This document shows positions 4,369 through 46,167 of a stretch of 55,706 nt of DNA, piece after piece (the first letter of the stretch is position 1; each line of letters opens with the position of its first letter). Origin of the DNA: Betaproteobacteria bacterium (GTDB taxonomy: Bacteria > Pseudomonadota > Gammaproteobacteria > Burkholderiales > UBA3065); contig RFMI01000032.1 of NCBI GenBank assembly GCA_009927815.1, forward strand, positions 1-55,706. The letters run 5' to 3'. The translations under genes and the position numbers were made by a program. The notes below the pieces were generated by a model. That model saw nothing but the letters and a program-made list of their open reading frames with translations. It ran no database searches and was not told the origin of the DNA.

Positions 4369-5808
4369 CTAGCTGTCCAGTCGCTCGCCGAGGTCGCCCA
4401 GGCCGTACTGACGGAGTTTGACGTACAGGCTCTGACGCGACAGGCCGAGCATCTCGGCTGCGCTGGCGCGATTGTCGCGGGTCAGTTCGAGGGCGGCTTC
4501 GATGCAGAGCTTCTCGATCAGTTCAGCGGTCTCGCCGACGATGTCCTTCAGCGGGACACGGCCCACCAATTCGGTGAGTTGGCTTGCGCTGCGGGTCAGT
4601 CCATCGGGCGTGGCCGGCTCCTCGAGTCGGGTGGCGACGTCGCGGACGCTGAAGCACAGGAAATTCCGCCCGTTGACATGCAAGGCGCGGGCCGACATCT
4701 CGACCTGGGTCTGCAAGCCGTTTTCGCCGCGCAGGGTCGTGGCAAACAGTCGAACCGAGCCGCGTTGGCGCAGGTTGGCCAGCAGCACCGAGAGGTCTAC
4801 CCCCGAGCGGCCGAGCCAACGGTCCAAGGACTCGCCGAGGAGAGCATTGGGGTGCGCCAATTGCGCCAGATCGGCGAACGCTTGATTTGCGCTGACGACG
4901 ATGCCGCTCGCGTCGGTGACGACAAAACCATCTGGCAATTGGCCGAGCGCCTCGAGGGTCAGCGCCGTGTTGTCTTGGGCTTCCTGGCTCGACGCCAAAC
5001 CTCGGCCAACCAGGCGGATCAAAAACAGGCTCTGGTTGTCTTGGCGGAACACGCTGGCGCTGACTTCGGTCTCGTTGCCACCAACGGCGAGGCGTGCGCT
5101 GCTGGCCTGCCCGCGGCCGGTGCTCAGCACCGAGGTCAATACGCTGTCGAGTTCGTTGCGGTTGGCTGCGTCAAAACAGTCGTTGAACGCTCTTCCAGTG
5201 GGCTTGCGGCCACCGGCCGTCAGCAATTGCTCGGCTGCAGTGTTGGCCTCAAGGATGCGACGACTGGCCGCATCGACCACCAAGGTCGGTTCGGGCGCGG
5301 TTTCGAACAGCAGCCGGTAGCGGGCTTCCATCTGGCGCATGCGTTGATAGTCGCGCTCCATCGCCTGATGCGAATCGACCAGGCGCTGTTGCAATTCGGT
5401 GACGCTGCGCAGATCACGGCCATAGGCGAGGATGCGGCCATCGCTCAAGCGCGCCGACCCATATTGAATGGGCAGCGACTGGCCGTCGCGATCGACATGG
5501 TTGATGTGGCGCCATTTGCGTTGACGACCCACGCGGGCGTCTTCGAGCAGTGCGTCGACCTTGTCGCGGCATTCCGGGCTGACGACATCAACCAGCAAGC
5601 GACCGATCCAGGCCTGGGCTTGCTCAAGCTGCGAGTCGGCTTGGGTCAGTCGCGCGCGCTGGATCCGACCCTCATCGTCGAGGATTAGCGAAATGTCGGC
5701 TGCGGCAGCCAGCAGCGAGGCAGCCGCCAGCGGTTCGACGGTGCTGACGACGTCAACTGCATCGGGGTAGCCGTTCTGGGTGACCTGTCCGGTGGGGCTC
5801 TTGCTCAA
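4369..5808 (-). CDS. ppsR: Photosynthesis gene regulator PpsR/CrtJ (3 PAS domains + Fis-type HTH)
   Basis: Q-linker QQRLVDSHQAMERDY, LVGRVPLKDIV, IEKLCIEAALELTRDNRASAAEMLGLSRQSLYVKL with the redox Cys. Confidence 0.96.
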   Translation of the reverse strand: MSKSPTGQVTQNGYPDAVDVVSTVEPLAAASLLAAAADISLILDDEGRIQRARLTQADSQLEQAQAWIGRLLVDVVSPECRDKVDALLEDARVGRQRKWRHINHVDRDGQSLPIQYGSARLSDGRILAYGRDLRSVTELQQRLVDSHQAMERDYQRMRQMEARYRLLFETAPEPTLVVDAASRRILEANTAAEQLLTAGGRKPTGRAFNDCFDAANRNELDSVLTSVLSTGRGQASSARLAVGGNETEVSASVFRQDNQSLFLIRLVGRGLASSQEAQDNTALTLEALGQLPDGFVVTDASGIVVSANQAFADLAQLAHPNALLGESLDRWLGRSGVDLSVLLANLRQRGSVRLFATTLRGENGLQTQVEMSARALHVNGRNFLCFSVRDVATRLEEPATPDGLTRSASQLTELVGRVPLKDIVGETAELIEKLCIEAALELTRDNRASAAEMLGLSRQSLYVKLRQYGLGDLGERLDS

Positions 5809-6689
5809 TTCGGCTGTGCTCGTTCTTGGATCAGGCGGTCGGCCGCTCGCAGGGCGTCGAGGGCGTCACCGGAGTAGGCTTCAGCGCCCAACATGGCACG
5901 AACGCTGGCATCAAAGACCAGCGGACCGCCGACCATGATGCCGAGTCCCGGGTTCAGCGACGCGCTGCGCACTTCGCGAATCAGTTGGCTCAGCGCATCG
6001 AGGTGGGCGCTGTTGCTGACCGACACGGCTGCGACGTCGTACCAGTCCGAGCGCACCGCGTCGATCAAGGCCGCGGGCTGCGCCTCGATTTCGGCACAGG
6101 CACTCCACCCCGCGCGGCGGAAGAACTGCGTCAGCATGTAAAAGCCCAAGGTGTGCTGACTGCCAGGGGCCGGTGAGAGCAGGATGCGTCGCTGCGGCTG
6201 GCGGAACTCGGGCTCTGCGCAAAACTCTTCGGCGAGCGATTGCACCAGGCTCTGGATACGCCACAGCGCTAGGGTGACTTCGGGGAACGTGCAGTCGTCG
6301 GTTTCCCAAAGTCTGCCAATCTGCCGTGCGGCCGGCGCCAGCAGCTCAAGATAGAGCGCAGGCAATTCGTGGCCCAGCGATCGCAAGCGGGCGAACTCGG
6401 TCTCGTGCGCCGCAGCGTCGAGCGCGAGGCAGGCGCATACATAGTCCTGGACATCGGCGGCGCTCACCGGCGCGGGGATGTGCTGAGGCAGGTCCATCGG
6501 CGGCCGCCGATGCGACCGGAGCAATTGCGGAATGATCTGTGCGCTGAGCGTTTGCATCAGTTGTGATCGCGCGTCGAGACCATCGTCGGCCCGCAGCTCT
6601 TGCCGCTGGCCTGCGGTCGCGGATGAGTTCCCGTGATCGCCGGACGAGGTGCCCTGAAGGCGCTTTGCAGACATCGAATTTGCGCCCAT
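5805..6689 (-). CDS. ppaA: Cobalamin-binding antirepressor PpaA/AerR
   Basis: LYLELLAPAARQIGRLWETDDCTF, PGSQHTLG and IMVGG B12-binding domain features; directly upstream of ppsR and divergent from bchF. Confidence 0.88.
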   Translation of the reverse strand: MGANSMSAKRLQGTSSGDHGNSSATAGQRQELRADDGLDARSQLMQTLSAQIIPQLLRSHRRPPMDLPQHIPAPVSAADVQDYVCACLALDAAAHETEFARLRSLGHELPALYLELLAPAARQIGRLWETDDCTFPEVTLALWRIQSLVQSLAEEFCAEPEFRQPQRRILLSPAPGSQHTLGFYMLTQFFRRAGWSACAEIEAQPAALIDAVRSDWYDVAAVSVSNSAHLDALSQLIREVRSASLNPGLGIMVGGPLVFDASVRAMLGAEAYSGDALDALRAADRLIQERAQPN

Positions 6690-15045: not shown

Positions 15046-15796
15046 TTGGATAAGGGGAGGCCAAGCGTGCACGTCGTCAAGGACCATCTGATCTCTGAGG
15101 CGCCGTCCTATCGGGAGCGGCGGCGGATGATCCAGCACTACTTCGATCGCACCGCCGTCGAGGCTTGGGCGCGGCTCACCTCTACTGCGCCGGTCAGCGG
15201 CATCCGCGCGACCGTACGCGCCGGCCGCGAGACCATGCGCAATCACCTGCTGTCCTATCTGCCAGACGATTTGTCGGGGCGGCGTGTGCTCGACGCAGGG
15301 TGTGGGACCGGCGCGATGGCGGTGGAGATGGCTCGGCGCGGCGCCGAAGTGGTCGCGGTTGATCTGTCGCCGACGCTCATCCAATTGGCTCGCGACCGCA
15401 CACCCACGGACCTGGGCGGCGGTTCAATCGAATTTCGCGCCGGCGACATGCTCAGTCCGCAACTGGGGACCTTCGACCACGTGGTGTCGATGGATGCGCT
15501 CATCCACTATCAGAGCCGTGATGTGGTCCGCGTGCTTGAAGGGCTCGGTCAGCGCACACGGCGCAGCGTGGTGTTCACGTTTGCACCGCAGTCTTTGTTT
15601 CTGGCGGGAATGATGATGGCGGGCAAACTCTTCCCGCGCGGTGATCGCTCGCCGGCGATCTATCCAGTGCGCGAACGTGCCCTGCGCCGGATGATCGAGC
15701 GCGATGCGGCCATGCGCCATTGGCAAGTCGGTCGCACCGACAAGGTCTCGCGGGGGTTTCTACATCTCGCAAGCGTTGGAGCTGACACGCCGATGA
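15046..15796 (+). CDS. bchM: Mg-protoporphyrin IX methyltransferase (single-base frameshift near 3' end, probably a sequencing error; start uncertain)
   Basis: YFDRTAVEAWARLTS, VLDAGCGTG, PRGDRSPAI; removing one G from the G5 at 15752-15756 restores RGFYISQALELTRR* with TGA at 15794-15796. Confidence 0.92.
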
Positions 15797-29532: not shown

Positions 29533-30000
29533 ATGTTCGACATCGGTTTCGGCGAACTCGTCGTGATCGGCGTGGTTGCGCTGCTGGTGCTCGGCCCCGA
29601 GCGCTTACCGCGGGTGGCGCGCGACGTCGGGCGGTGGATCGGTCGCGCCCGCCGGTACGTTGAGCGGATGCGCGAGGAGATCGATCGCGAGGTCGAGCTG
29701 ACCGAGTTGCAGCGACTGCGTGACGAGATCGAGACCAAGGTTCGCGCGGCGGCCGAGAGTGTCGACGAGGCCGCTGGGGCAGTCCGACTCAGCCTCGATG
29801 ATGTCGCTCAACCCCGCCCAGAGGCAACGGCCGTTGCTGCCGTCGAGCCAAAACCCCACGAAACCCCATCCAGCAAGCCGGCCAGGACGCGGGCCCGCAC
29901 CCGCAAGCCCGCGGCCACCGGTGATGGGGCTCAAACGGGCGGGGTGTCCGCCCCGTCTGCGCCGGCTCGACGTCGGCGTACTCCAGCCAAGCTCGACTGA
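29533..30000 (+). CDS. tatB: Twin-arginine translocase subunit TatB
   Basis: MFDIGFGELVVIGVVALLVLGPERLP..AR. Confidence 0.95.
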   Translation: MFDIGFGELVVIGVVALLVLGPERLPRVARDVGRWIGRARRYVERMREEIDREVELTELQRLRDEIETKVRAAAESVDEAAGAVRLSLDDVAQPRPEATAVAAVEPKPHETPSSKPARTRARTRKPAATGDGAQTGGVSAPSAPARRRRTPAKLD

Positions 30001-30208
30001 GCCCCGGCGCACCTTCGGTGCACCCAATACCCTAGACGATTTCAAAAATCTTTTAGATTTAATCTCTTATAGACAATATGAAATTCATGCCCTATTTTTG
30101 ATCGTGCTGCGGAATTGGCTGGCGGATAGACACCCTAAAACAACCCGATGCCGTTCTATACACACGTGGCGCACTGGCTGCACAACGACAAAAAACGGAG
30201 GAGGAGTT

Positions 30209-31219
30209 ATGGATCACAAGAAGGATAGACGCGAGTTCCTTCAGCTCACCGGCAAAGCCGGATTGTCGACTATCGTCGGCAGCGCTGCAGGCATCAACCT
30301 TGGGGTGTTCGATCTGGCGCACGCACAACCGGGCAATAAAGTTGCCCCGTTCCGCTTCGCCATGATCACCGATTCGCACCTTTTCAGCGGCGACGACCAC
30401 AAGTTCGACCGCCAGCTCGAAGACGCTGTCGAGCAGGTCAACAGCATGGAAATCAAGCCTGATTTCGTGCTGTACGGCGGCGACATTGCCCAGAACGGCA
30501 CCGAGGATCAACTCGTCAAGGGCCGCAAGTTGCTCTCCAAGCTCGACACCAAACTGGTGTTGATTCCCGGCGAGCACGACTGGTATGTCGATATGGGCGC
30601 GGCTTGGAAAGGCATGTTCGGTCAGGACCACTGGTCGTTCGACCACAAGGGCGTGCACTTCATCGGCATGAATTCGATTTTGGTGAAGGATTTCTGGACC
30701 GCCAAACAGATGTCCCCGCGTGAGCGGATGGCCGCCATGGAGATGCTCGAGGGACCGATCGGCGGCCTCTGGGGCGTCGGTGAGAAGCAACTCGAGTGGC
30801 TCAAGAAAGACGTCGCGAAGCTGTCTCCGGACACGCCCATCGTCACCTTCACTCACTCGCCGCTGTGGGACTACTACCCGCGCTGGAACTTCCAGACTGT
30901 CGATGGGCCGCAGATCCGCGAGATTCTCTCCAAGTTCGAGAACTTCACGTCGATCCACGGCCACGTGCACCAGACGGTCTACAACAAGGTCGGCAACATG
31001 ACTTCGATCGGCGCGATGAGCACGTCGTGGCCGTGGCCGTACCCGCCGGTCACGTTGGCGTATCCGGGTTCGCAAATGAACCGTCACGATCCGGGCAACG
31101 AAGTCGATGGCATGGGCACCCTGGCGGTGAGCGTCAAGGCCGGTGGCCAGAAGCTCGCCGAGTACCAGCCTTTCGGCGATTCGCTAACCCCGTACCTTAA
31201 AAAGGGCCTCAAGGCCTAA
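30209..31219 (+). CDS. Tat-exported metallophosphoesterase (calcineurin-like, Icc/CpdA-related)
   Basis: RBS GGAGGAG; Tat motif DRREFLQ; metal motifs DSH, GGD, PGEHD, TH, HGHVH. Confidence 0.88.
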   Translation: MDHKKDRREFLQLTGKAGLSTIVGSAAGINLGVFDLAHAQPGNKVAPFRFAMITDSHLFSGDDHKFDRQLEDAVEQVNSMEIKPDFVLYGGDIAQNGTEDQLVKGRKLLSKLDTKLVLIPGEHDWYVDMGAAWKGMFGQDHWSFDHKGVHFIGMNSILVKDFWTAKQMSPRERMAAMEMLEGPIGGLWGVGEKQLEWLKKDVAKLSPDTPIVTFTHSPLWDYYPRWNFQTVDGPQIREILSKFENFTSIHGHVHQTVYNKVGNMTSIGAMSTSWPWPYPPVTLAYPGSQMNRHDPGNEVDGMGTLAVSVKAGGQKLAEYQPFGDSLTPYLKKGLKA

Positions 31220-31232: not shown

Positions 31233-31742
31233 ATGAAAGCGACATTCAAGCCTACGCTCGCCATCGCCGTCCCCCTGTTTGTTCTCACCGCTTTGGCGTC
31301 TGGAAGCGCCTCGGCGCGTGAGCCATTCAGCAAGGAGGAATTGGACAAGCAGCAAGCCAAGTTGCTCGAGCTGGTGGAGCAGGGCTACAACCTCTGGCAC
31401 GGTAGCAACCCCGAGATGTCTGGCAACGGTCTGGCTTGCGGAAATTGCCACCCGGATGCCGGCGCCTCTAACCCGCAGACCTTCCCCAAGTACATCCAAA
31501 ACATGAACCGGGTTGTGCAGTGGGGCGAAATGGTCAACTGGTGTATCCAGAATCCGCAAGCGGGTAAAGCACTGGCGCTCGAAAGTGAGGACATGACGGC
31601 GATGTATGCCTACGCCATGAACCTTCACCGCGGCTTGCCGATCCAGCCGGGACTGGCTTCACTGCAGACCAAGCCGGTTCCTGTTAAGTACGGCAAGGGT
31701 TTCCCGTCGAAGCCGTCCGGCATTGGTTTTGACACCAAGTAA
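31233..31742 (+). CDS. Monoheme c-type cytochrome, SoxA/TsdA-like
   Basis: Signal peptide; GNGLACGNCH heme motif; downstream FPKY and MVNWCIQNP with a conserved-looking extra Cys. Confidence 0.75.
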   Translation: MKATFKPTLAIAVPLFVLTALASGSASAREPFSKEELDKQQAKLLELVEQGYNLWHGSNPEMSGNGLACGNCHPDAGASNPQTFPKYIQNMNRVVQWGEMVNWCIQNPQAGKALALESEDMTAMYAYAMNLHRGLPIQPGLASLQTKPVPVKYGKGFPSKPSGIGFDTK

Positions 31743-32325
31743 GTCGGTGTGGCTGCCAGTTGTTATGGCAGCCATGTTGCCGGCTGTCGCAGTACACGCG
31801 CAGTCCTGCGTCGACCAGTTCGTCCCGAATTCGTCGATGCAGGATTTCGCAGACCACGGCGACGGCACCCTGACCGACCGGCGAACGGGGCTCACCTGGT
31901 CGCGATGTTCGGCCGGACAGTCTTGGCAGAGCGGGTCTTGCGTTGATAAGGCCGCCGAATTCGATTGGACGGCCGCCGAGTCGTATGTGCGCGAGGTCAA
32001 CGAGCGGGGTGATCTGTTTTACGCCGATTGGCGTTTGCCGAATCTGCGTGAGCTGGCAACCATCAGTGAAGTGAACTGCCAGGATCCCCGCATCAACCTC
32101 GAGGCGTTCCCGGGTACGGCTCAAGGATTTTATTGGACGGCGTCCCGAAAGCTGATCGAAGGCCCGGAACTCGCTGCGTTTGCGATGAGTTTTGGTGCTG
32201 AGGGGATGCGCGTCAGTCGTTCGGTCGAGACCCACCACGTGCGACTGGTTCGTCGTAGCGACCATGCGCTGTCGGACTCAGGAGCACAGTTTCAGATTCT
32301 TACATCCATCAGGAGCATTCGATGA
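31723..32325 (+). CDS. DUF1566 (Lcl C-terminal-like) secreted protein
   Basis: DGTLTDRRTGLTWSRC, DWRLPNLREL, FYWTAS, HVRLVR motifs; start uncertain. Confidence 0.8.
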   Translation: MVLTPSKSVWLPVVMAAMLPAVAVHAQSCVDQFVPNSSMQDFADHGDGTLTDRRTGLTWSRCSAGQSWQSGSCVDKAAEFDWTAAESYVREVNERGDLFYADWRLPNLRELATISEVNCQDPRINLEAFPGTAQGFYWTASRKLIEGPELAAFAMSFGAEGMRVSRSVETHHVRLVRRSDHALSDSGAQFQILTSIRSIR

Positions 32326-32639
32326 AGCAATCCCGCAGAACCTTCATGATCCGGGCAGTGGCCGGTGTCGCCGCAGCGACCGTGCTGCCGCAAGTCGCTC
32401 ACGCGACGACGGAAAAACTGTCCGAATCCGATCCCTATGCCAAGTCGATGGGCTTCAAGCTCAACCACGAGGAAGTTGATCCGGCCAAGTACAAGCGTTG
32501 GACAGCCGAGCAGCAGTGCAATAAGTGCCAACTCTGGGGTGGTAAGGCCGGAGATGAATACGGCGAGTGTTCGTTTTTTGAGCGCTACACACCCTCTGGT
32601 GGCTGGTGCAAGAATTTCAAGGCGGTCAAAAAAGCCTGA
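32322..32639 (+). CDS. High-potential iron-sulfur protein (HiPIP)
   Basis: Tat signal SRRTFM; LSESDPYAKSMGF; four Cys in CNKC..C..GWC pattern. Confidence 0.9.
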   Translation: MKQSRRTFMIRAVAGVAAATVLPQVAHATTEKLSESDPYAKSMGFKLNHEEVDPAKYKRWTAEQQCNKCQLWGGKAGDEYGECSFFERYTPSGGWCKNFKAVKKA

Positions 32640-32667
32640 CGCTTTTCAACGCGCTAAACGTTTCTCC

Positions 32668-32695
32668 CTGTGGGCCTCGATGTCGAGGCCCACAG
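32668..32695. terminator. Perfect inverted repeat after HiPIP (likely terminator)
   Basis: CTGTGGGCCTCGA-TG-TCGAGGCCCACAG, 13-bp arms; weak T tail. Confidence 0.6.
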
Positions 32696-32706
32696 TTCAT
32701 TCTGAA

Positions 32707-32750
32707 TGTCATTTTTTATAGACATTAATGATAGTCAGAGTAAAGTGACA
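32707..32750 (+). promoter_or_regulatory. Tandem PpsR boxes over the putative pufC promoter
   Basis: TGTC-N10-GACA at 32707-32724 (perfect TGT-N12-ACA) and AGTC-N10-GACA at 32733-32750, 8 bp apart; overlap TAGACA (32719-32724) and TAAAGT (32741-32746). Confidence 0.8.
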
Positions 32751-32849
32751 CTCATGGTCGGGCGGCGTCCGTCGTTCGAGGATGGGGTCAGGTGTCGTGT
32801 CCTCCGTTGTTTGCATTCGAATGGCGGCGCGGTGCTTGGGGGGGGTTCG

Positions 32850-33995
32850 ATGATGCGCATCTTTGCCGTCTTGGCCGCCGGCCTTGCAGGCGTGCTGTTC
32901 TTCGCTTTCATGATCACGGACTCGACGCAGGCAGTGCAGCGCGGTCATCGAGGTACAGGCATGGCGCTGATGTACAAGCCCGCAGCACTGGAAGCGCTCA
33001 AGCCTCTCAATGCCATCCCCGAAGCCGAAGACCCGGCCGACCCGCCGATCATCGGGCAGCCGACAATCACCGAGCGCTACAAGAACATCCAGGTTCTTAA
33101 AGATTTGAGCGTCAACGAACTCTCGCGGGTGATGGCTGGATTCGTGGCTTGGGTCGCGCCCGAAGAAGGCTGCGTCTATTGCCACAACACGCAGAACATG
33201 GCGTCGGATGAGAAGTACACCAAGGTCGTCGCGCGGCGCATGCTGCAGATGACTCGAACAATCAACAATGAGTGGACCCAGCATGTGGGTTCTACGGGCG
33301 TGACTTGCTGGACTTGCCACCGTGGCCAACACGTACCCAGCGGGGACTGGTTCTCTGCGGCGCCGCAGAAGGCGCGAATGCTGGGCAACCGCGACGGCCA
33401 GGACACGGCGGGCGTTGCGACCAATGGCAATACCTCTTTGCCGTACGACCCCCTGACCACCTACCTCACCACGCCCGATGCGAATGTTCGCGTTCAGGGC
33501 ACGCGGCCGCTGGCGGGTAGCAACCCAACCTCAGTGAAAAAGGCTGAGCACACCTACGCGTTGATGATCTACATGGCGAAATCTTTGGGTGTGAACTGTG
33601 ATTATTGCCACAACACCCGGGCCCTCGCGCGATGGGAACAGAGTTCACCGCAGCGCGTCACGGCTTGGTATGGCTTGCGCATGGTGCGCAGCCTCAACAT
33701 CAACTACCTGGTTCCGCTAAAGCCCTTGTTCCCGGAATATCGGTTGAGCCCCGAGGGTGATGGCCCTAAGGTTGCCTGTGCGACGTGCCACAAGGGCACC
33801 TACAAACCACTGTACGGGGTCAGCATGAAGGCTGACTGGCCGGAGTTCTGGCGGCGCGGCGGTGTCGACACCAGCAATGAGGTCCGCACCCTCCCAGTCA
33901 ACCATCCTCGGCCCGATCCGCAGCTGGCCAAGGCGGGCTTGCCGGACTGGGAGACGGGTTACGCGCCTGAGCCAATCCCAGCCGAGGAAGACTGA
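32850..33995 (+). CDS. pufC: Photosynthetic reaction-centre tetraheme cytochrome c subunit (stand-alone)
   Basis: QRGHRGTGM, YKNIQVL, WVAPEEGCVYCH, YTKVVARRMLQMT, HVGSTGVTCWTCHRG, SLGVNCDYCHNTR, KVACATCHKG..KPLYG; ATG 32850. Confidence 0.93.
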   Translation: MMRIFAVLAAGLAGVLFFAFMITDSTQAVQRGHRGTGMALMYKPAALEALKPLNAIPEAEDPADPPIIGQPTITERYKNIQVLKDLSVNELSRVMAGFVAWVAPEEGCVYCHNTQNMASDEKYTKVVARRMLQMTRTINNEWTQHVGSTGVTCWTCHRGQHVPSGDWFSAAPQKARMLGNRDGQDTAGVATNGNTSLPYDPLTTYLTTPDANVRVQGTRPLAGSNPTSVKKAEHTYALMIYMAKSLGVNCDYCHNTRALARWEQSSPQRVTAWYGLRMVRSLNINYLVPLKPLFPEYRLSPEGDGPKVACATCHKGTYKPLYGVSMKADWPEFWRRGGVDTSNEVRTLPVNHPRPDPQLAKAGLPDWETGYAPEPIPAEED

Positions 33996-34012: not shown

Positions 34013-35098
34013 CTAGTTTGACAGGGTCGTGGCCGTCGGGTAGTCGGTGTAACCGGCCTCGTTGCCACCGTAGTAGCTCGCCGCGTCGCCGCCGGCCAGG
34101 GCAATGCCGAGCCGGACCCGCGTGACCAGATCGGGATTGGCGATGAACGGCCGACCAAAAGCCACCAGATCGGCGCGACCGCCACGCAGAGCCGCTGCGG
34201 CCTTGTCGGGCGTGTAGTTGCAACAAGCCATGTAGGTGCCACCAAACGCCGAACGCAGCTTGGCGTAATCGACGCGCGCTTGCGCCAGGTCGTTGCGGTC
34301 TTCGCCCTCAACCACGTGCAGATACTCGACGCGCCCTTTGAGCATGGCGGCCACCGCCGAGAACAGTGCTTGCGGGTCGCTGTCGTCAATGTCGTTGAAC
34401 GTGTTCTCCGGCGAGATGCGCACGCCCACGCGGCCTTCGCCGGCCACTGCTGTAACCGCACTGACCACTTCGTCCAGCAAACGCACGCGGTTGGCGATCG
34501 TGCCGCCGTACGCATCGGTGCGATGGTTCGTTTTGTCGCGCAGGAACTGGTCGAGCAGGTAACCGTTGGCGGCGTGAATCTCGACACCGTCAAAACCGGC
34601 GGCAAGCGCGTTGCGCGCCGCTTGGGCGTAGGCCTCGACCAGCGGCGGAATCTCGGCGAGTTCGAGCGCTCGCGGCACCGGCAGCGGCTGAAATCCATCG
34701 AAGGTGTAGGCTTGGCCATCAGCAGCGATGGCCGACGGCGCCACTGGCGCTACGCCGCCCGGCTGGAAGCTCGCATGCGAGATGCGGCCGACGTGCCACA
34801 GTTGCAGAAACATCCGGCCGCCGGCGGCATGAACCGCTTCGGTCACCACAGTCCAGCCGTTGATCTGGGCTGGACTGTGGATGCCGGGCGTCAGGATGTA
34901 GCCCTGACCCTCTGGCACGATCTGCGTCGCTTCGGAGATGATCAGGCCGGCACTGGCGCGCTGTGCGTAATAGAGGGCTGTCAGCGGGGTGACTGCGTTG
35001 TCGCGGTTGGCACGGCAGCGGGTCAGTGGCGCCATGACGATGCGATTGGGCAGCTGCAAGGCGCCGAGGCGCAGCGGCGAGAACAGGTCAGTGCTCAT
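34013..35098 (-). CDS. Old yellow enzyme family alkene reductase (NemA-like)
   Basis: NRIVMAPLTR, YYAQRASAGLIISEAT, QLWHVGRISH, EIHAANGYLLDQF, AFGRPFIANPDL, GYTDYP. Confidence 0.93.
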   Translation of the reverse strand: MSTDLFSPLRLGALQLPNRIVMAPLTRCRANRDNAVTPLTALYYAQRASAGLIISEATQIVPEGQGYILTPGIHSPAQINGWTVVTEAVHAAGGRMFLQLWHVGRISHASFQPGGVAPVAPSAIAADGQAYTFDGFQPLPVPRALELAEIPPLVEAYAQAARNALAAGFDGVEIHAANGYLLDQFLRDKTNHRTDAYGGTIANRVRLLDEVVSAVTAVAGEGRVGVRISPENTFNDIDDSDPQALFSAVAAMLKGRVEYLHVVEGEDRNDLAQARVDYAKLRSAFGGTYMACCNYTPDKAAAALRGGRADLVAFGRPFIANPDLVTRVRLGIALAGGDAASYYGGNEAGYTDYPTATTLSN

Positions 35099-35772: not shown

Positions 35773-38019
35773 ATGGTCGGCAAGACCTGGCAAGAGAGCC
35801 TCCTGCGTCTCTTGCTCTCGATTTCCGAAAAGGTCGCGGCGCTGGATTCGCTCGACGACATCCTGAACCTTCTGGTCGAGGTGAGCACCGAGCAACTGGG
35901 CGCCGACCGTAGCACGCTGTTCCTGAACGATCCCGGTACCAACGAGCTGTACTCGCGGGTGGCGCAAGGCAATCTCAGCCAAGAGATTCGGCTGATGAAC
36001 GATCGCGGCGTGGCCGGCTGGGTCTATCAAAAGGGCGAGCCAGCGATCATTCACGATGCCTACAAGGACAAGCGCTTCGACAGCTCGGTTGACCAGCGCA
36101 CCGGCTACACCACGCACAGCATCCTTTGCGTACCGATCCGCAACGCCAAGGGTGAGTTGATTGGCGTTGCGCAGGCGCTGAACAAGAAGGACGGAAAATT
36201 CAGCAAGGAAGACCAGGAGTTGCTCGCCGCCATCACCACCCAAGGTGCCTTGGGTCTGGAGAGCATGGCGCTGGTCGAGCGGATGAAAAAGATCCGCGAG
36301 CAGGAACTGGAGTTCTTGGAGGTGGTGAGCGACCTCACCTCCGACATCAAGATCGACTCGCTGCTCAACAAGGTGATGGCCGAAGCGACGCGCATGCTCA
36401 ATGCCGAGCGCAGCACGTTGTTTCTAAACGACGAAAAGACCCAGACGCTGTGGTCGCAGGTGGGACAGGGGCTCGGCTCGCTGCAGATCCGCCTGCCCAA
36501 CACGGCGGGCATCGCCGGCGCAGTGTTTAGCAGCGGCAAGACCATCAACATCCCGCACGCGTACGCCGATCTGCGCTTCAACCCGGCCTTCGACAAGAAA
36601 TCCGGCTTCTTCACCCGCAGCATCCTCTGCGTGCCGATCATCAACCAGAAGGGCAAGGTGATCGGCGTCACCCAGGTGCTGAACAAAAAGAATGGCGTAT
36701 TCACGCTTGAGGACGAGTCGCGCCTCAAGGCGTTTACTGCACAGATCGCTATCTCGCTGGAAAACGCCAGCCTGTTTGCCGACGTGCAGAACATGAAGAA
36801 CTACAACGAGTCGATGCTCGAATCGATGAGCAACGGCGTGATCACGCTCGACGACGAAGGGCGCATCGTCACCTGTAACACGGCGGGTGCCAAGATTCTG
36901 CGTCTGCGGGTCGAGGAGATCATTGGTACCAAGGCGGAGGTGTTGTTCAACGAGGCCAACGCTTGGATCATGGACAAGATCCGCAAACTGGCCGACGACC
37001 CGACGCCGGACATCACGATGGACGCCGAGATGACGGTGGTCGGCGAGACGGTGTCGGTCAACAGCACCATCCTGCCGCTCTCCAACACCGAGGGCGAGCA
37101 CCTCGGCAGCATGTTCATGTTCGAAGACATCTCGTCCGAGAAGCGGATGAAGTCGACGATGTCGCGCTACGTCGATCCGGCGATCGCCGACCAGTTGCTG
37201 TCGAAGGGCGGCGAGGCGATGGGCGGCCAAAGCGTCAACGCGACGCTGCTGTTCTCCGACATCCGCGGCTTCACTACGCTCACCGAGGCGCTGGGCCCGC
37301 AGGCGACCGTGACCCTGCTCAACGAATACTTCGAGATCATGGTCGATTGCATCACCCGTGAGGGCGGGATGCTCGACAAGTTCATCGGCGACGCCATCAT
37401 GGCGGCCTTCGGCATCCCGCTGGCGCACGACGACGACGAAGACCGTGCGGTACGGGCGGCGGTGGCCATGATCAGCGAACTGCAAACGTGGAACACCGAG
37501 CGCGAAGCCGAGGGCAAGCTGCCGGTCAACATCGGTATTGGGCTCAACACCGACATCGTGGTGAGCGGAAACATCGGCTCCAAGAAGCGTATGGACTACA
37601 CCGTGATCGGTGACGGCGTGAACCTGGCCGCACGTCTGGAGTCCGCGTGCAAGCAGTACTCAGCGAAGATCCTGATCAGCGAGTTCACGCAGGCCAAGCT
37701 GCGCGGCATCTACCGCATGCGCGAGGTCGATCTGGTGGTGGTGAAGGGCAAGACCCAGCCCGTGAGCATCTACGAGGTGCTGGATTACCACACGTCCGCG
37801 AGCTTCCCCAACATGATGGATGTGCTGGGTAACTTCACCGAAGGCCTGTCACGCTACCGTGCCGGCAACTGGGACACCGCCATCGCCTCTTTTCAGAAAG
37901 CGCTGTCGCTCAATCCCAAGGACAAACTCACCGGCACCTACATCGAGCGTTGCGAGCTGATGAAGGCGCATCCACCCGAAGGCGAGTGGGACGGCGTCTG
38001 GGTGATGACCGACAAATAA
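35773..38019 (+). CDS. Class III adenylate cyclase GAF-GAF-PAS-cyclase-TPR (true start may be 35697 via a frameshift)
   Basis: Two GAF domains with NKKDG..F..ED and NKKNG..F..ED; PAS; LFSDIRGFT, DKFIGDAIMA, DYTVIGDGVNLAARLE; TPR-like tail ending WDGVW. Confidence 0.92.
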   Translation: MVGKTWQESLLRLLLSISEKVAALDSLDDILNLLVEVSTEQLGADRSTLFLNDPGTNELYSRVAQGNLSQEIRLMNDRGVAGWVYQKGEPAIIHDAYKDKRFDSSVDQRTGYTTHSILCVPIRNAKGELIGVAQALNKKDGKFSKEDQELLAAITTQGALGLESMALVERMKKIREQELEFLEVVSDLTSDIKIDSLLNKVMAEATRMLNAERSTLFLNDEKTQTLWSQVGQGLGSLQIRLPNTAGIAGAVFSSGKTINIPHAYADLRFNPAFDKKSGFFTRSILCVPIINQKGKVIGVTQVLNKKNGVFTLEDESRLKAFTAQIAISLENASLFADVQNMKNYNESMLESMSNGVITLDDEGRIVTCNTAGAKILRLRVEEIIGTKAEVLFNEANAWIMDKIRKLADDPTPDITMDAEMTVVGETVSVNSTILPLSNTEGEHLGSMFMFEDISSEKRMKSTMSRYVDPAIADQLLSKGGEAMGGQSVNATLLFSDIRGFTTLTEALGPQATVTLLNEYFEIMVDCITREGGMLDKFIGDAIMAAFGIPLAHDDDEDRAVRAAVAMISELQTWNTEREAEGKLPVNIGIGLNTDIVVSGNIGSKKRMDYTVIGDGVNLAARLESACKQYSAKILISEFTQAKLRGIYRMREVDLVVVKGKTQPVSIYEVLDYHTSASFPNMMDVLGNFTEGLSRYRAGNWDTAIASFQKALSLNPKDKLTGTYIERCELMKAHPPEGEWDGVWVMTDK

Positions 38020-38064: not shown

Positions 38065-38496
38065 TTACTGCCCTTGCCGGTACCGCGCCTCGACCGCGGC
38101 GCGCTGGGCTTCGCTGAGTTCCGGAACATCGGGCACTTGGGCGCGCGCTGCGATCATGCGGCGGGTGATCCACACGCCCGCGACCACCAGGATGAACGGT
38201 CCGACCCACAGCAGTGCGTTGCTGACCGAAAACGGCGGGTCGTACAGCACGAACTCGCCATAGCGATCGACCATGTACTGTTTGATCTCGGTATCGGTTT
38301 TGCCCTGGCTCATCAGCTTGGCGACCTGATTGCGCAAGTCGACGGCCAGTCCGGCGTTGGAATCGGCGATGGTCTGGTTTTGGCAGACCAAGCAGCGCAA
38401 GTCGCTGGCGATGTCCTTGAGCCGCACGAGGTCGGTGCCTGGTGGCAGTCCGTTGGCAGCCGCGGCGGTGTCGCTGGAAGTCACATCGGTGGCCAT
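38065..38496 (-). CDS. ccmH: Cytochrome c maturation protein CcmH
   Basis: LRCLVCQNQTIADS, YMVDRYGEFVLYDP, LLWVGP TM helix. Confidence 0.92.
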   Translation of the reverse strand: MATDVTSSDTAAAANGLPPGTDLVRLKDIASDLRCLVCQNQTIADSNAGLAVDLRNQVAKLMSQGKTDTEIKQYMVDRYGEFVLYDPPFSVSNALLWVGPFILVVAGVWITRRMIAARAQVPDVPELSEAQRAAVEARYRQGQ

Positions 38497-38497
38497 G

Positions 38498-39030
38498 TCA
38501 GTGTGCCTCCTGGGCTAGCAGCGGTGCCACGTGCTCGGTAAAGAATGCCTCGTCGACCGGTCCGACCTGTTTGTAACGGATGACGCCGGCGCCGTCGATG
38601 ACGAAGGTCTCCGGCACGCCGTAGACCCGTAATCGATGCCGACCAGACCGTTGCGGTCGATGGCGATCTGCGTGTAAGGATTGCCACGCTGTGCCAGCCA
38701 TTCGCGGGTGTCGGCGGGCTCGTCCTTGTAGGCCAGGCCGACCAGCGGCACGGCGTTTTTGGCCGCGATGGCGAGCAGCAATGGGTGCTCGGCGACACAG
38801 GCGCCGCACCAGCTGGCGAACACGTTCATCAGCCAGACCTTGCCTTTGAGTGCGTCCGGGGTGACCACGGTCTGGCCCTCACTCAGAGCCGGCAGGCTGA
38901 AGGCCGGTGCCGGCTTGTCAACCAGCACTGAGGGCAGCTTGCGCGGGTCGTGCTGCAGGCCAATCACGAAGACCACTGCCAGTGCAATGAGCACCAGCAG
39001 CGGCAGGATGATGCGCAAGCGTCCGCCCAT
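38498..39030 (-). CDS. ccmG: Thiol:disulfide interchange protein CcmG/DsbE (frameshift at ~38627)
   Basis: LPSVLVDKPAPAF, NVFASWCGACVAEH; adding one G (minus strand) at 38626-38628 restores GIDYGVYGVPETFVID. Confidence 0.9.
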
Positions 39031-39032
39031 GC

Positions 39033-41074
39033 TCAGGCCTGCGCGGGCGACGAAGCCGATGCTGCATCGGTGGCCGGCGCAGCGGCGCGACGCAGGCGGT
39101 AGCGCCGATCGAACAGGGTGGTGCCCCGCCGATGGCCATCATGAGGCAGGCGATCCAGACCCAGGCCATGAACGGCTTGACGTAGATGCGCACACTCCAG
39201 CCTTGGTCGCTGGCGGCCTCGCCGGGCTTCGGTTCGACCGGTTCACCCAGCGAGACATACACGTCACGGAACATGCCGTAGTCGATCGCGGCTTCGGTCA
39301 TGACCTGCCGGCCGGCTTGGTACATGCGCTTTTGCGGCTCCATCAAGTAGATGACTTTGCCCTCACCCTCGGTGAGCTCGAACACCCCGTGTTGGGCCAC
39401 GTAATTAGGCCCGCTGCCCTGATCGACGCCGATGAAGGTGATGCGATTGCTGCCGACCTGCACGGTCTCGGCGGGCTTCATCACCAGGTCGCGCTCAAAC
39501 TCGTACGATTTGACCATGCTGACGCCGGCGACGAAGGCCGCGACGCCAAGGTGCGCAATGACCATGCCCCAGTAGCTCGCGCCGAGTTTGCCGGCCCTGG
39601 CTCCCAACGATCCGCTATCGCCATTGGTGGACAGCTTCGCCAGTTGCCGGCGGGCGTGGTCGGCGGTGCCCCAGGCGAGGATCAGCGCGCCGGTGAGGCC
39701 TAGCACAGTCAGCCACTTGAACGGTCCGAGCCACAGCACCGCCGCAGTGGCGAGCAACAGCGCCGCCAGCGTGGGCAGTAGCATCGGCCGCAACACTGCA
39801 GGCAGTGTCGACTCTTTCCAGCGTAGATTCGGCGCGACCGCCATGAGGTAGGCGGCAGGCAACAGCAGCGGCACGAACACCGCCTCGAAGTAGGGCGGTC
39901 CGACGGACATCTTGCGACCGCTGAGCACCTCGGCGAAAAGCGGATAGAGCGTGCCGAGCATCACCGCGCCCAATGCGGCGCTCATCAGCACGTTGTTGGC
40001 GAGCAAAAAGCTCTCGCGCGAGACCTTTCCAAAGCGCCCGCCGAGGCCAATGTCGCGCGTGCGCAACGCGTAAAGCACCAGCGAGGCGCCCACGATGAGC
40101 ATGAGCATCGACAGGATGAAGATTCCGCGCTTGGGGTCGGTGGCAAAGGCATGTACCGAGGTGAGCACACCGGAGCGAACCAGGAAGGTGCCGAGCAGCG
40201 ACAGTGCGAACGCCACCAGTGACAGCAGGATGGTCCAGCTCTTCAGCGCATCGCGTTTATCGGTGACCGCCAGCGAGTGGATCAGAGCGGTGCCGGCCAG
40301 CCAAGGCATCAGCGAGGCATTCTCGACCGGATCCCAGAACCACCAGCCACCCCAGCCGAGTTCGCGGTAGGCCCACCACGATCCCAGCAGAATGCCGATG
40401 GTCAAAAACGACCACGCGGCGTTGGCCCACGGCCGGCTCCAGCGCGCCCAGGTCGGGTCGAGGCGCCCCTCCATCAAGGCGGCCACGGCAAACGCGAACG
40501 CCACGGCAAAACCCACGTAGCCCATGTAGAGCATCGGCGGGTGGATGACCATGAACGGGTCTTGCAGCAACGGGTTCAGGTCGCGGCCCTCAGCCACCGC
40601 CGGCAAGAGGCGCTCGAAGGGATTGGAGCTGCTCAGCAGAAACAGCAAAAAGAAGGCTTGCAGCACCAGCAGCAGCGTCAGTACTCGAGCGCGATACCCC
40701 GCCGCCAGCGCGTTGGAGGCGAGTGCCACGGCTGCGGTCCAGCCGCACAGCATCAGGTTCCACAGCAGGAACGAGCCTTCGTGCGAACCCCAGGTGGCGG
40801 CGAATTTATATTGCAGCGGCAGCAGTGTGTTCGAGTTCTCGGCGACATTCAGCACCGAAAAGTCGCTGCCCATGAACAAGGTCGCCAGCAGCCCGAAACT
40901 GGCGGCGACCAGTACGAAGGTCAAGAACGCCGTGGTGCCAAGAATGCGATTGGCGGCAGCGAGGTCGACGCCCGGAGCCGCGACGCGGCGCAAGCCCCAC
41001 AAGTGCTGAAGGCCGATGACCAAGCTGGCGGCGAAGGCCAGCGACAGCAGCAGTTGTCCGATTTCAGCGATCAC
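39033..41074 (-). CDS. ccmF: Heme lyase CcmF (frameshift at ~39125 near C-terminus)
   Basis: WGSHEGS, LNPLLQDP..IHPP, WAYRELGWGGWWFWDPVEN, RSGVLTSVHAFA; corrected tail LFDRRYR..AQA* ends at 39033. Confidence 0.94.
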
Positions 41075-41484
41075 TTTGCGTCCTTGCCCAGCTTGGGCGG
41101 CATGTAGTTCTCATCGTGTTTGGCGAGGATCTCGCTGGCGGAGAACACGCCAGATTTCAGCTCGCCCTGCGCCACCGCGCCCTTGCCCTCGCGGAACAAG
41201 TCAGGCAACACACCGGTGTAGCTCACCGGCACGCTGTGTTTGAGGTCGGTCATGCGGAAGCTGATGGTCAGGCCTTCGCGCTGGACGCTCCCAGTCTCAA
41301 CCATCCCGCCAATGCGCACCGACCGGCCGGACGGCGCCTCGCCAGCCAGCACTTGGGTCGGGGTGTAGAAAAACACCATATTGTCGTTGAAGGCCCGAAT
41401 CACGCCCCACGCGGTCGCAACGACGGCGACGGCGATAGCAACGATCCACAGCAGGCGTTTGCGGCGGGTGGGCGATTTGATCAT
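41071..41484 (-). CDS. ccmE: Heme chaperone CcmE
   Basis: FFYTP, RIGGMV, YTGVLPDLFREG, LAKHDENYMPP. Confidence 0.95.
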   Translation of the reverse strand: MIKSPTRRKRLLWIVAIAVAVVATAWGVIRAFNDNMVFFYTPTQVLAGEAPSGRSVRIGGMVETGSVQREGLTISFRMTDLKHSVPVSYTGVLPDLFREGKGAVAQGELKSGVFSASEILAKHDENYMPPKLGKDAK

Positions 41485-41612
41485 TCGGGCGCGGCGTCTT
41501 CTTCAATGAGGGCGCGAGCAGCGGCCTCGAGCCGTCGGGCTTGCCATGCGTCAGCCGCCAGCGCGAACAGGCCTAAGGCGTAGCTGATGACAATGGCGGT
41601 CAAGGCGGTCAT
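41481..41612 (-). CDS. ccmD: Heme exporter small subunit CcmD
   Basis: 43 aa MTALTAIVISYALGLFALAADAWQARR..; hydrophobic N-terminus with SY, charged tail; between ccmC and ccmE. Confidence 0.7.
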   Translation of the reverse strand: MTALTAIVISYALGLFALAADAWQARRLEAAARALIEEDAAPE

Positions 41613-41613
41613 G

Positions 41614-42340
41614 TCAGATCTCCCGAACCCATTTGGCGCGCGCCTCGCGCAGTGCAAGCAGCCAACGGCCACGCACTAGAACAATGGCAGCGCAGGCAAA
41701 CCAAACGGCGAACGTGCATATCAGCAAAGTGATCTTCATCTCCGGGGCCATCCGGGCAGCTCCGGGTGCACCTATAGACATGCCCTGATGGAGGGTGTTC
41801 CAGAACACCACTGAGAAATAGATCAAGGGAATGTTGACCATGCCGACCACCGTGAACAGCGCCAGCGCCCGATCGGTCTTGTGTTCGTCCTCCACCAAAC
41901 TGGAGAGCGCCATCAATCCCAAGTAAATAAAGAGAAGCATGAGCTCCGAGGTGAGACGCGCGTCCCACACCCAGTAGGTGCCCCAGGTCGGCTTGCCCCA
42001 CAGCGATCCGGTAACCAGTGCCACCACGGTCATCCAGGCGCCAGTGGGCAGCAGGGCGCGCATCATCACCGCTGACACCGGGCTGCGCCAAATCCAGAAC
42101 AGCACCGCGTAGCCCGTGGCTACCGAGTACAGGAACATCGACATCCAGGCTGCAGGAACGTGCAGGTAGATGATGCGATACACCTCGCCCTGCTGGGCAT
42201 CGGTGGGGGTGCCCGCCAGCGCCAGCCACAGACCGGGAATCGCCAGCAGGACTGGCCGCGCGGGCGAGCCATACGGCGGCCGGCCCGCTCAGGCGAAAAA
42301 AAACCGGCGGTGAGCCGAGTTGCTTAAGGAACGTCAACAT
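41614..42340 (-). CDS. ccmC: Heme exporter CcmC (frameshift at ~42254)
   Basis: LGSPPVFFRLS N-terminus; DAQQGEVYRIIYLHVPAAW; WWD-type motif GSLWGKPTWGTYWVWDARLTS; WNTLHQ. Confidence 0.92.
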
Positions 42341-42391
42341 GACTCATATTCTAGCGTCCCTCGCGGGCTTGGCCCGGACAATCGCCAGCCA

Positions 42392-43756
42392 TCACTCGAT
42401 GGCAAGGTCGAGCACGCGACGCGCCATCGGCGGCACCAGCAGCAGCGACAGCGCGCTGATGCCCACCAGCGTCGCGAGGGGACCGGTCAGACTCTGGTCG
42501 GCTTGCGCCGCCGTCACCGTCGTCACGCCGAAGATCAGCACCGGGACGAACACCGGAAAGCTCATCAGGCTGATCAGGACCTGTGCTTGCCGCGCCATCA
42601 GCGCCAGAGCGCTAAACAGCACGGTGAAGGCACCCAAGGCCAACGTACCCGCCGCCAGCGACAGCGCCAGTGCGGCAATGCCGGCGGTGTCGAGGTTGTA
42701 GAGCAGTGCCAATGGCACGCTGTAGAGCGCCATTGGCAGGCCGAACAGCAGCCAATGGGCGATGACCTTGCCAGCCAGCAATGCACTGAGCGGAAAGCTC
42801 ACGGCCTTGAGTTGTGACAGGATGCCGCTGCGGAAATCCGCTTCCAGATGGCGGCTGGCCGAGAGCAGGGTCACCAGCAGGGCGCTGACCCACACCATCC
42901 CTGGTGCGATGCGAGCCAGTTGTTGCGGGTCGGTGCCGATACCGAACGGGATCAGGCTCAGGATCATCCAGTGGAAGATGCCGGGCCACACCAGTTCGCG
43001 GGGCGCGGCCATGGCCAGGCGCAGTTCGCGGCGCAAGGCCCAGCGCAGCGGCGTCGGGCTGGTTCGGGTGCTGAAGGCGCCGGTAGCGATCGGAGCTGCC
43101 GCGGCGATTGCGGCCACCGGTTGCAGGGTCGCCGATCGGCCGCTCAACTCGACGCGGGCGTGGCACAGCGGCTCGAGTGTTGGGTCGAGTTCGGACAGCC
43201 GGCGGTGGGTGGCGACGACGGCGATGCCGCCAGCCGCCAGATGGTCTTTGAGCAGCTCGATGAACAGTGCAATGCCGGCCGCATCCAGCGCGTTGACCGG
43301 TTCATCAATCAGCCACACGCGACGCTGGCTCGCGGCCATCACCGCCAGCACCAATCGCCGCCGCTGGCCCTCAGAGAGCTGCTCGACTCGCTTGTTGGCT
43401 GCGCGTTGCAGACCGACCCGCTGCAGAGCCATGCGAGCCTCATCGGCGCCGAGTCGTACGGCCATTGGTTCGAGCGCAGCGTGCAAGTGTTCGCCCGCAG
43501 GCAACTCGCCACGCAAAGCCGGGTTCTGTTCGAACAAGAAGATCTCGCCATCGGCCGGCCAGACCGAATGCAGCGACAGCCGGGGCTGCAATCCCGCAAG
43601 CGTTCGCAGCAGCGTGCTTTTGCCGCTGCCATTCGGACCGACCAGTTCGACGAAGCGACCTGCGGGCAGGTCCACCGACAGGGACTCGGCCAAAGTGCTC
43701 TGGCCCCGGGTCAGCCGCAGGTCGCGGATCTGCAGGGTGTCGGTGCGGCCGGTCAT
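42392..43756 (-). CDS. ccmAB: Fused heme exporter CcmA (ABC ATPase) - CcmB (permease)
   Basis: GPNGSGKST, LSEGQRRR, WLIDEP, ATH, then in frame LRRELRLA..PFGIG..LARIAPG..ADFRSG..FVPVLIFG. Confidence 0.85.
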   Translation of the reverse strand: MTGRTDTLQIRDLRLTRGQSTLAESLSVDLPAGRFVELVGPNGSGKSTLLRTLAGLQPRLSLHSVWPADGEIFLFEQNPALRGELPAGEHLHAALEPMAVRLGADEARMALQRVGLQRAANKRVEQLSEGQRRRLVLAVMAASQRRVWLIDEPVNALDAAGIALFIELLKDHLAAGGIAVVATHRRLSELDPTLEPLCHARVELSGRSATLQPVAAIAAAAPIATGAFSTRTSPTPLRWALRRELRLAMAAPRELVWPGIFHWMILSLIPFGIGTDPQQLARIAPGMVWVSALLVTLLSASRHLEADFRSGILSQLKAVSFPLSALLAGKVIAHWLLFGLPMALYSVPLALLYNLDTAGIAALALSLAAGTLALGAFTVLFSALALMARQAQVLISLMSFPVFVPVLIFGVTTVTAAQADQSLTGPLATLVGISALSLLLVPPMARRVLDLAIE

Positions 43757-43770
43757 GGCGGAAAGGCCTA

Positions 43771-45204: not shown

Positions 45205-45301
45205 TCGGGTAGATTTGAATTGGTTGTAGTGCACGAGGCGCGCGAGCTTTGTCGGCGCGGTGTCCAGAAAATCCGGCATTTTGAACATCCAGGGTAAGGC
45301 C

Positions 45302-46165: not shown

Positions 46166-46167
46166 GC

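Follow-up and report, generated by a model that had tools for sequence, protein, structure and literature searches.

A second, HiPIP-linked pufC gene behind predicted PpsR sites in a freshwater Burkholderiales phototroph

Introduction

The gene pufC, which encodes the tetrahaem cytochrome of the photosynthetic reaction centre (RC), is treated as a single optional gene following pufM, as far as the available parts of two accounts of the puf genes go (PMC6920907, PMC12654162). What, then, is the role of a complete gene of this type that stands alone, with neither pufL nor pufM beside it? The question is raised by a 55,706-nucleotide stretch of DNA (the window; contig RFMI01000032.1 of assembly GCA_009927815.1, from a betaproteobacterium of the order Burkholderiales), in which such a gene, here called pufC2, follows a gene for HiPIP, a high-potential iron-sulfur protein, and is preceded by two palindromes of the type bound by the regulator PpsR/CrtJ. 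A previous sequence-only reading had left two answers side by side: a relocated sole pufC, or a second, swappable RC cytochrome for an alternative electron donor. We find that the genome has a canonical pufC as well and that pufC2 belongs to a separate lineage that travels with the HiPIP gene and the other genes of a cassette. From comparing these sequences, we lean towards the view that PufC2 is a PpsR-gated, HiPIP-specific alternative RC cytochrome.

Results

PufC2 is a complete reaction-centre-type cytochrome

The pufC2 gene closes a block of five genes, in the order metallophosphoesterase, SoxA/TsdA-type cytochrome, DUF1566/Lcl_C protein, HiPIP and pufC2 (Table 1), which we call the cassette. 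Its product is an intact tetrahaem PufC, as had been proposed. It matches two curated profiles, PF02276 (CytoC_RC; 403.3 bits, cut-off 22.4, covering positions 5-308 of the 310 in the profile) and NCBIfam NF040706 (PufC; 420.7 bits, cut-off 150). Alignments to RC cytochromes of solved structure extend over its full length, with 7xxf_C as the best hit (E 2.1e-97, query residues 5-334). The four CxxCH motifs are found at residues 108-112, 153-157, 250-254 and 310-314, and the Met/His columns are kept: none of 12 clade members departs from Met95, Met131/134, His145 and Met239. For the assignment of haems to these ligands we presume that the Blastochloris viridis structure applies to PufC2 as well.

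The N-terminus of PufC2 is a hydrophobic membrane-anchor segment that aligns with the membrane helix of 7xxf_C and has no lipobox Cys; the segment is free of Cys in all 12 relatives whose gene context is known. The open reading frame spans 32706-33995, and the gene start that had been given, 32707, turned out to be the first base of the first palindrome. The gene's conserved start codon, an ATG, lies at 32850 and has a G-rich ribosome-binding site in front of it. The ratio of non-synonymous to synonymous substitution rates (dN/dS) lies between 0.06 and 0.12 in 10 of 10 species pairs, that is, pufC2 is subject to strong purifying selection.

The genome has a canonical pufC as well

As had been noted, the HiPIP gene directly precedes the intergenic region of pufC2, and the puf operon lies outside the window. 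It is found on contig C49 of the same assembly, where pufB, pufL and pufM are followed by a second pufC (pufC1), 14 bp past pufM if measured from the edges of the tblastn hits. These are the only two PF02276 matches in the genome. The earlier suggestion to look for another pufC at pufLM thus gives a positive answer, and the idea of a relocated sole pufC is refuted. PufC1 and PufC2 are 55% identical, while PufC2 is up to 68% identical to database proteins; as the two also fall into different clades, a recent duplication within this genome is ruled out. Relatives of PufC in the database number roughly 5,000. PufC1 has a lipobox (LTGC), whereas PufC2 has none.

The phylogeny of PufC, the other check that had been proposed, places the copy of the window in a clade of its own kind. 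We calculated a FastTree tree of 134 PufC proteins labelled by gene context, leaving out context-less database hits, the locus L109 (identical to the window), the duplicates L013-L016 and the fragments L012 and L058. One clade of this tree, with a support of 1.0, contains all 27 genes that are linked to a HiPIP or cassette and none of the 92 that are linked to pufM; nine rows of unknown context belong to it too. The same split is seen in a quick IQ-TREE tree of 43 rows (SH-aLRT 96 and 97). Adding 119 database hits enlarges the clade to 132 rows, lowers its support to 0.68 and shows transmembrane-anchored and lipobox subgroups within it. In PufC2 of this genus and in the nearest groups the anchor is a transmembrane segment, as opposed to the lipobox of PufC1.

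The ratio of bit scores could not be used to classify PufC1 and PufC2, since the HiPIP-linked copies of L121, L123, L126 and L129 score higher with PufC1. A class-level sample, searched with a purple-sulfur origin in mind, gave matches in 9 of 401 genomes, with an identity of 45-51%, which is no closer than PufC1.

pufC2 and HiPIP are gained and lost together

Five of the seven species genomes of the genus have pufC2, in identical synteny. A pattern scan of species genomes found the gene in eight more, including Polynucleobacter sp. CS-Odin-A6, which among our loci is the sole named record from a culture, and several metagenome-assembled genomes of Burkholderiaceae; some of these have the gene order of the window, and in others pufC2 comes first and the block is convergent on pufM-pufC1. 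A canonical pufC is also present in 11 of the 11 genomes found with the HiPIP-linked copy, among them all five extra cassette genomes that we checked. When the order was sampled evenly, pufLM turned up in 47 of 401 genomes, and a PufC match in exactly these 47 (the coordinates of pufC and pufM were compared for examples among them, such as G140). Two full copies of PufC were seen in this sample only in this genus and in G183. Among 80 metagenome loci, 16 show the HiPIP/cassette context and 53 have pufM directly upstream; none shows both, and 11 could not be judged.

One metagenome-assembled genome, G401, is arranged as follows: one pufM (L035, 8903-9892), without a following pufC, converges on the cassette, and a second set of pufLM and pufC is found on another contig (L090). 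PufM of one contig has an identity of 89.8% to that of the other, and the G+C content of the contigs is not the same; the genome has two puf operons, or else two strains were binned together.

In the sister species G006 (88% complete) about 210 bp separate recR-parA-tatA-tatB from the OYE gene and the GAF-cyclase gene, and the entire cassette including pufC2 is missing from the otherwise syntenic site. The cassette is gained or lost as a unit. HiPIP was found exactly once, inside the cassette, in each of the genomes G000, G001, G002 and G003, and by tblastn in the cassette of G005. In two genomes, G004 (82% complete) and G006, no HiPIP was found, and neither was PufC2 or the phosphoesterase. 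Within the genus, HiPIP and PufC2 are either present together or not found together.

A tandem of PpsR-type boxes overlaps the predicted pufC2 promoter

Between HiPIP and pufC2 there are a terminator-like hairpin and two PpsR-type palindromes, 8 bp apart, over a predicted promoter. This part of the sequence-only reading stands, except that the second box is not a full consensus site. The predicted -35 (TAGACA, 32719-32724) and -10 (TAAAGT, 32741-32746) hexamers overlap both boxes. The hairpin is kept in all five species and is followed by a run of T in sister species.

To score such tandems, we allowed at most 2 mismatches of 20 to the pattern (TGTCA-N8-TGACA)-N8-(same). At this threshold, the double box of pufC2 is the only tandem in the 1.76-Mb genome, as well as its best one, and comparable tandems were found neither in 300 random genomes of the same composition nor in 50 Mb of local composition. 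Tandems of the same format are present in this genome before bchC, before bchG and between an AerR-like gene and bchF. The cognate regulator gene, ppsR, is present too, with the AerR-like B12-binding gene beside it.

The spacer of 8 bp is kept in 5/5 species, and together with the TGT/ACA and GTC/ACA cores it is invariant although synonymous sites are near saturation (dS 0.7-1.4) and the flanks of the boxes have diverged. In two of the five species (G001, G005) the homologue of box 2 is an exact TGT-N12-ACA. Tandems with an 8-bp spacer also precede pufC2 in lineages whose genes are ordered differently (L035-L038, L111, L115, L119, L125, L129), and 7 of the 16 metagenome cassette loci have a tandem, 3 one strong box and 6 no box. 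We were not able to find a PpsR box upstream of the phosphoesterase operon; pufC2 is the only gene of the block that bears one. Altogether, conservation and the positive controls within the genome support well the prediction that the boxes are PpsR sites.

pufC2 is apparently expressed

Contigs from four of four lake RNA libraries, which come from four studies, cover pufC2 and the operon upstream of it with a likeness of at least 95%. RNA libraries can contain DNA, and the depth of contigs cannot rank genes; with this in mind, pufC2 is apparently expressed. Two of the RNA contigs begin at 32760 (X16) and 32767 (X17), just past the predicted -10, where contig ends are no evidence of a start site, and a third (X15, 31350-32761) crosses the hairpin. 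None of the four RNA runs has a contig over the convergent OYE gene (34325-34867), and such a lack of cover is itself no evidence.

The cassette and its possible relation to a Sox system

The HiPIP of the cassette is the only one found in the whole genome. In alignments, the GNHD of Rv0805 and other relatives is replaced by GEHD in the phosphoesterase. A single CxxCH is present in the small cytochrome, together with an invariant N-W-C, the Cys of which aligns with the haem-domain Cys of TsdA and SoxA. For both the phosphoesterase and the small cytochrome, the protein atlas gives generic names only. Genomes that lack pufLM can have this pair too, with neither HiPIP nor PufC (G043, G227 and others); the phosphoesterase has matches in 17 genomes, and no claim made here rests on one of these, G031.

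In relatives soxYZ lies in the block or next to it: in G002, G003 and G005 the pair is divergent and upstream of the phosphoesterase gene, and it is found between the DUF1566 gene and HiPIP in G183, L119, L121 and L125. Neither SoxB nor any other SoxA/TsdA-type domain was found in this genome, which is estimated to be 94% complete, and the set of SoxXA, SoxYZ and SoxB that defines the thiosulfate-oxidising Sox system is accordingly not complete here.

In contrast to sister species, there is no tatC or soxYZ between tatB and the phosphoesterase gene (30000-30209) of the window. The tatC gene is found on contig C138 (1274-2280), with a second gene of the tatA/B family beside it. The displacement of tatC and soxYZ may be a real rearrangement or an effect of the assembly.

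Surroundings of the cassette in the window

The window is contig C34 of an assembly of 140 contigs with a G+C content of 64.6%. Half of the photosynthesis gene cluster is located at 200-23450, with crtB, crtD, a crtA-like gene, ppsR, the AerR-like B12-binding gene, bchF, bchN, bchB, bchH, bchL, bchM, a gene of the PucC family, puhA, puhB, acsF and dxs. A single open reading frame of 722 amino acids at 15046-17214 combines a BchM methyltransferase part (residues 26-240, approximately) and a PucC/LhaA-family part (304-642), and may be a fusion or two genes called in one frame. Between the photosynthesis genes and the pufC2 block there are dnaX, ybaB, recR, a parA-like gene, tatA and tatB.

Adjoining the site of the cassette, at 35773-38019, is the gene for a GAF-GAF-PAS adenylate/guanylate cyclase with TPR repeats, which has an identity of 88-90% in all five sister genomes examined, including G006, which has no cassette. 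It is followed by a cytochrome c maturation set on the - strand (38065-45087; a ccmA/B fusion, ccmC, ccmE, ccmF, ccmH and a ccmI-like gene), which sits between the pufC2 block and a multihaem cluster on the + strand (45260-55618). This cluster encodes a ferric-reductase-like membrane protein, a cytochrome of 530 amino acids with 10 CxxCH and two further large proteins; it holds a 758-aa protein with weak signals of an outer-membrane barrel and a cytochrome of 1290 amino acids with LVIVD repeats and 10 CxxCH. By its appearance, the cluster encodes a conduit for electrons at the outer membrane or outside the cell.

Table 1. Positions of the pufC2 gene, its upstream elements, the other cassette genes and the presumed regulator in the window
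Feature	Position	Strand	Basis and remarks
Twin-arginine-exported metallophosphoesterase	30209..31219	+	PF00149, 44 bits; GEHD instead of the usual GNHD
SoxA/TsdA-type monohaem cytochrome c	31233..31742	+	PF21342, 44.4 bits; the only such domain of the genome
Exported Lcl_C/DUF1566 protein	31723..32325	+	PF07603, 93.1 bits; overlaps both neighbouring genes
HiPIP with twin-arginine signal and 4 Cys	32322..32639	+	PF01355, 50.3 bits (cut-off 22)
Terminator-like hairpin closing the HiPIP operon	32668..32695	+	12 pairs, 9 of them G-C
PpsR/CrtJ-type box 1, TGTCATTTTTTATAGACA	32707..32724	.	exact TGT-N12-ACA; TGT and ACA invariant in 5/5 species
Predicted sigma-70-like promoter	32719..32746	+	consensus scan, 9/12 positions; 16-nt spacer
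PpsR/CrtJ-type box 2, AGTCAGAGTAAAGTGACA	32733..32750	.	8 bp past box 1; GTC and ACA invariant in 5/5 species
pufC2, stand-alone tetrahaem RC-type cytochrome, 381 aa	32850..33995	+	profiles, structure alignment, conserved start
ppsR, presumed regulator of the boxes	4369..5808	-	TIGR02040, 467.8 bits at 4399-5715 (cut-off 275.4); 27 kb upstream
AerR/PpaA-like B12-binding gene adjoining ppsR	5805..6689	-	PF02310 and PF02607

Discussion

A candidate second entry into the reaction centre

The comparative evidence fits the second of the two earlier answers, a second RC cytochrome for an alternative donor, because PufC2 falls into a separate clade, is linked to the HiPIP cassette, co-varies with HiPIP within the genus and has boxes that are conserved across lineages. 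That the two cytochromes are swappable, in the sense that PufC2 physically takes the place of PufC1, is a further step that we only infer. The linkage to HiPIP and the gene's own putative repressor site suggest a dedicated extra electron route into the photosystem.

Such a route could work as follows. The pufC2 gene would be transcribed from its own promoter, which PpsR would occupy by means of the two boxes 8 bp apart, so that PufC2 would be made together with the photosystem. It would then replace the lipoprotein PufC1 on the periplasmic face of the RC and, once seated there, would be the place where the HiPIP of the gene just upstream docks and its electrons enter. The HiPIP gene itself would be the last one of a separately transcribed operon (phosphoesterase, His/Cys cytochrome, DUF1566 protein, and in relatives SoxYZ) whose products probably oxidise some substrate in the periplasm, for which a reduced sulfur compound is the most plausible candidate. 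In this way PufC2 would couple the HiPIP donor branch to the photo-oxidised special pair. The sequences themselves show the gene with its clade, type of anchor and selection, the linkage to the cassette, the co-variation with HiPIP and the conserved operator; that PpsR binds there, that PufC2 binds to the RC and is specific for HiPIP, and that the substrate is a sulfur compound, we infer.

One can go further and see in the whole cassette a plug-in "photolithotrophy adaptor" of streamlined freshwater Burkholderiales phototrophs, which would consist of the PpsR-controlled PufC2 swap, its own HiPIP and a previously unrecognised, minimal Sox-like enzyme working on SoxYZ. Here the exported GEHD metallophosphoesterase would replace SoxB and the monohaem His/Cys cytochrome would replace SoxXA, both acting on SoxYZ. 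We regard this extension as speculative and rather unlikely. If it were true, light would drive the oxidation of reduced sulfur, and organisms classed as aerobic photoheterotrophs would gain an inorganic electron input.

Several points weigh against PufC2 as a PpsR-gated alternative RC cytochrome. There is room for a single cytochrome subunit on an RC, and the puf operon encodes PufC1; none of our results shows a contact between PufC2 and the RC. Box 2, as AGT-N12-ACA, has one mismatch to TGT-N12-ACA. We were not able to recognise a PpsR box upstream of pufC2 in L031 or in Polynucleobacter sp. CS-Odin-A6 (L032), and with the six boxless loci among the 16 from metagenomes this means that control of pufC2 by PpsR is not clade-wide. 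The transmembrane anchor is not a clade-wide trait either, and we rejected it as such, since a large lipobox subgroup, to which the cassette copy of G183 belongs, shares the clade. The positions that separate the clades are few (PufC2 versus PufC1: Arg136 versus Gln, His234 versus Trp/Arg, Tyr241 versus His), and the difference in the net charge of the haem-1 lobe, -2 in PufC2 versus +3 in the PufC1 of this genome, is modest; it follows that donor specificity is not visible in the sequence. Finally, soxYZ is not beside the cassette in this genome, where it is an orphan pair adjoining ribosomal protein genes on contig C131 (2483-3276), and the PpsR of Rubrivivax gelatinosus binds in a redox-independent manner at a spacing of 8 bp, according to the excerpts of PMC4452267, so that the regulatory logic may differ from classical aerobic repression.

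Residues 136, 234 and 241 of PufC2 correspond to positions of about 33255, 33549 and 33570 of the window, and two of them flank the Met239 column by the third haem motif.

Alternative explanations

The strongest competitor, which we hold to be improbable but which has to be taken seriously, is that PufC2 is no RC subunit at all. It would be a free-standing, membrane-anchored tetrahaem relay of the cassette, passing electrons from the phosphoesterase/cytochrome/SoxYZ module or from HiPIP to the PufC1-bearing RC, to cytochrome bc1 or to a terminal oxidase, and PpsR would merely coordinate it with the photosystem. Such a relay could well be encoded away from pufLM, be gained and lost with the cassette and not with the puf operon, and leave the canonical pufC always in place, as we observe; furthermore, PufC2 matches NCBIfam NF033196, a model of PufC-like cytochromes outside phototrophs, with 102.6 bits. 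However, the full PufC model scores four times as high as this one, and the whole architecture of an RC cytochrome has been retained, down to the membrane helix seen in 7XXF. The genomic distribution argues against a relay as well: pufC2 was found only in genomes that bear pufLM (11/11), while the phosphoesterase-cytochrome pair lives without PufC2 in pufLM-less genomes (see above). Moreover, it is pufC2 alone in the block that bears a photosynthesis operator.

Still less probable is that PufC2 is a spare that works just as PufC1 does, without being specialised for a donor, and is retained for the sake of dosage or of assembly in certain conditions, for example by virtue of its different anchoring chemistry. 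All haem sites are present in both proteins and only two or three residues discriminate the clades, which is what one would expect of a spare. On the other hand, the lineages are old and cleanly separated, the HiPIP/cassette context is found in 27 of 27 cases in which the context is visible, and HiPIP and PufC2 co-vary within the genus; a linkage that survives rearrangements of gene order is not expected of a mere spare.

That the boxes are not PpsR sites, belonging to another regulator or being just A+T-rich sequence associated with a promoter, is very improbable, for although box 2 is imperfect and some members of the clade are boxless, random controls gave no comparable tandem, the cores and spacer stayed invariant while the flanks diverged, the arrangement recurs in unrelated gene orders, and the same format is found at bchC and aerR/bchF in this genome.

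Comparison with known systems

A double operator for PpsR/CrtJ is known at bchC of Rhodobacter capsulatus. The pufC2 boxes resemble the crtI and pucB operators of Rvi. gelatinosus as they are given in the excerpts of PMC4452267, with two palindromes that lie 8 bp apart over a promoter and of which one has a degenerate first base. According to the same excerpts, the PpsR of this species binds a native (TGa-N12-ACA)-N8-(cGT-N12-ACA) site, and degenerate first bases are present in sites bound in experiments. Unlike these operators, the boxes described here are predicted, and they belong to a paralogue of the RC cytochrome that lies outside the photosynthesis gene cluster.

With the operon-encoded PufC in the LH1-RC of Rhodopila globiformis (PDB 7XXF, chain C) PufC2 shares the family, the four haem motifs and the Met/His columns, and it also has an uncleaved N-terminal membrane helix, as does the Rhodopila subunit in the available part of PMC9640540. 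It differs from an operon PufC in that it does not follow pufM, is a second copy beside a lipobox PufC1 and belongs to a separate clade; its gene has a promoter and putative operator of its own and is always tied to HiPIP and the periplasmic oxidation cassette. Lipid-anchored and helix-anchored RC cytochromes have been contrasted between species, as far as the accessible portions of PMC10715153 and PMC9640540 show. In Rhodoferax fermentans, pufLM is reported not to be followed by pufC (PMC6920907).

Systems in which a HiPIP donates electrons to an RC-bound tetrahaem cytochrome (Rubrivivax gelatinosus; purple sulfur bacteria) offer a parallel: the HiPIP is encoded here together with an RC-type cytochrome. 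The SoxA/TsdA-like cytochrome in the cassette, and the SoxYZ of the same block in relatives, are reminiscent of sulfur oxidation by TsdA and Sox, whereas a short exported GEHD metallophosphoesterase is found where SoxB would be expected. In Allochromatium, TsdA donates electrons to HiPIP, and Rhodoferax fermentans is known from biochemical work for a tetrahaem cytochrome on its RC by which HiPIP is oxidised. Another RC cytochrome with a gene apart from pufLM is cytochrome c-554 (Puf2C) of Chloroflexus, which belongs to another phylum and has it as its sole RC cytochrome. PufC2 is similar in being an RC-type multihaem cytochrome whose gene does not adjoin pufLM, but it is a second copy, and its match to the corresponding model is weak (NF043009, 68.4 bits against a cut-off of 800). 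The sections of PMC10037100 at hand cite work in which the RC of Rvi. gelatinosus has HiPIP for its major donor, and they place the hip gene of Roseateles inside the gene cluster.

A full-text literature search, outside the coverage of which are some subscription journals, gave no description of a second pufC lineage or of its cassette. The cassette-linked lineage of PufC is apparently undescribed.

Conclusions

What we see here is a second, ancient lineage of RC cytochromes that is conserved, apparently expressed, predicted to be regulated separately and linked both to HiPIP and to a module for oxidation in the periplasm. Since species with and without the cassette are found in one genus, they form a natural comparison set. 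The lineage offers a testable handle on the donor specificity of tetrahaem RC cytochromes and on inorganic electron donors in freshwater aerobic anoxygenic phototrophs. If PufC2 does act as an alternative RC cytochrome, it would imply that some abundant phototrophs of lakes can change the electron-entry port of one reaction centre.

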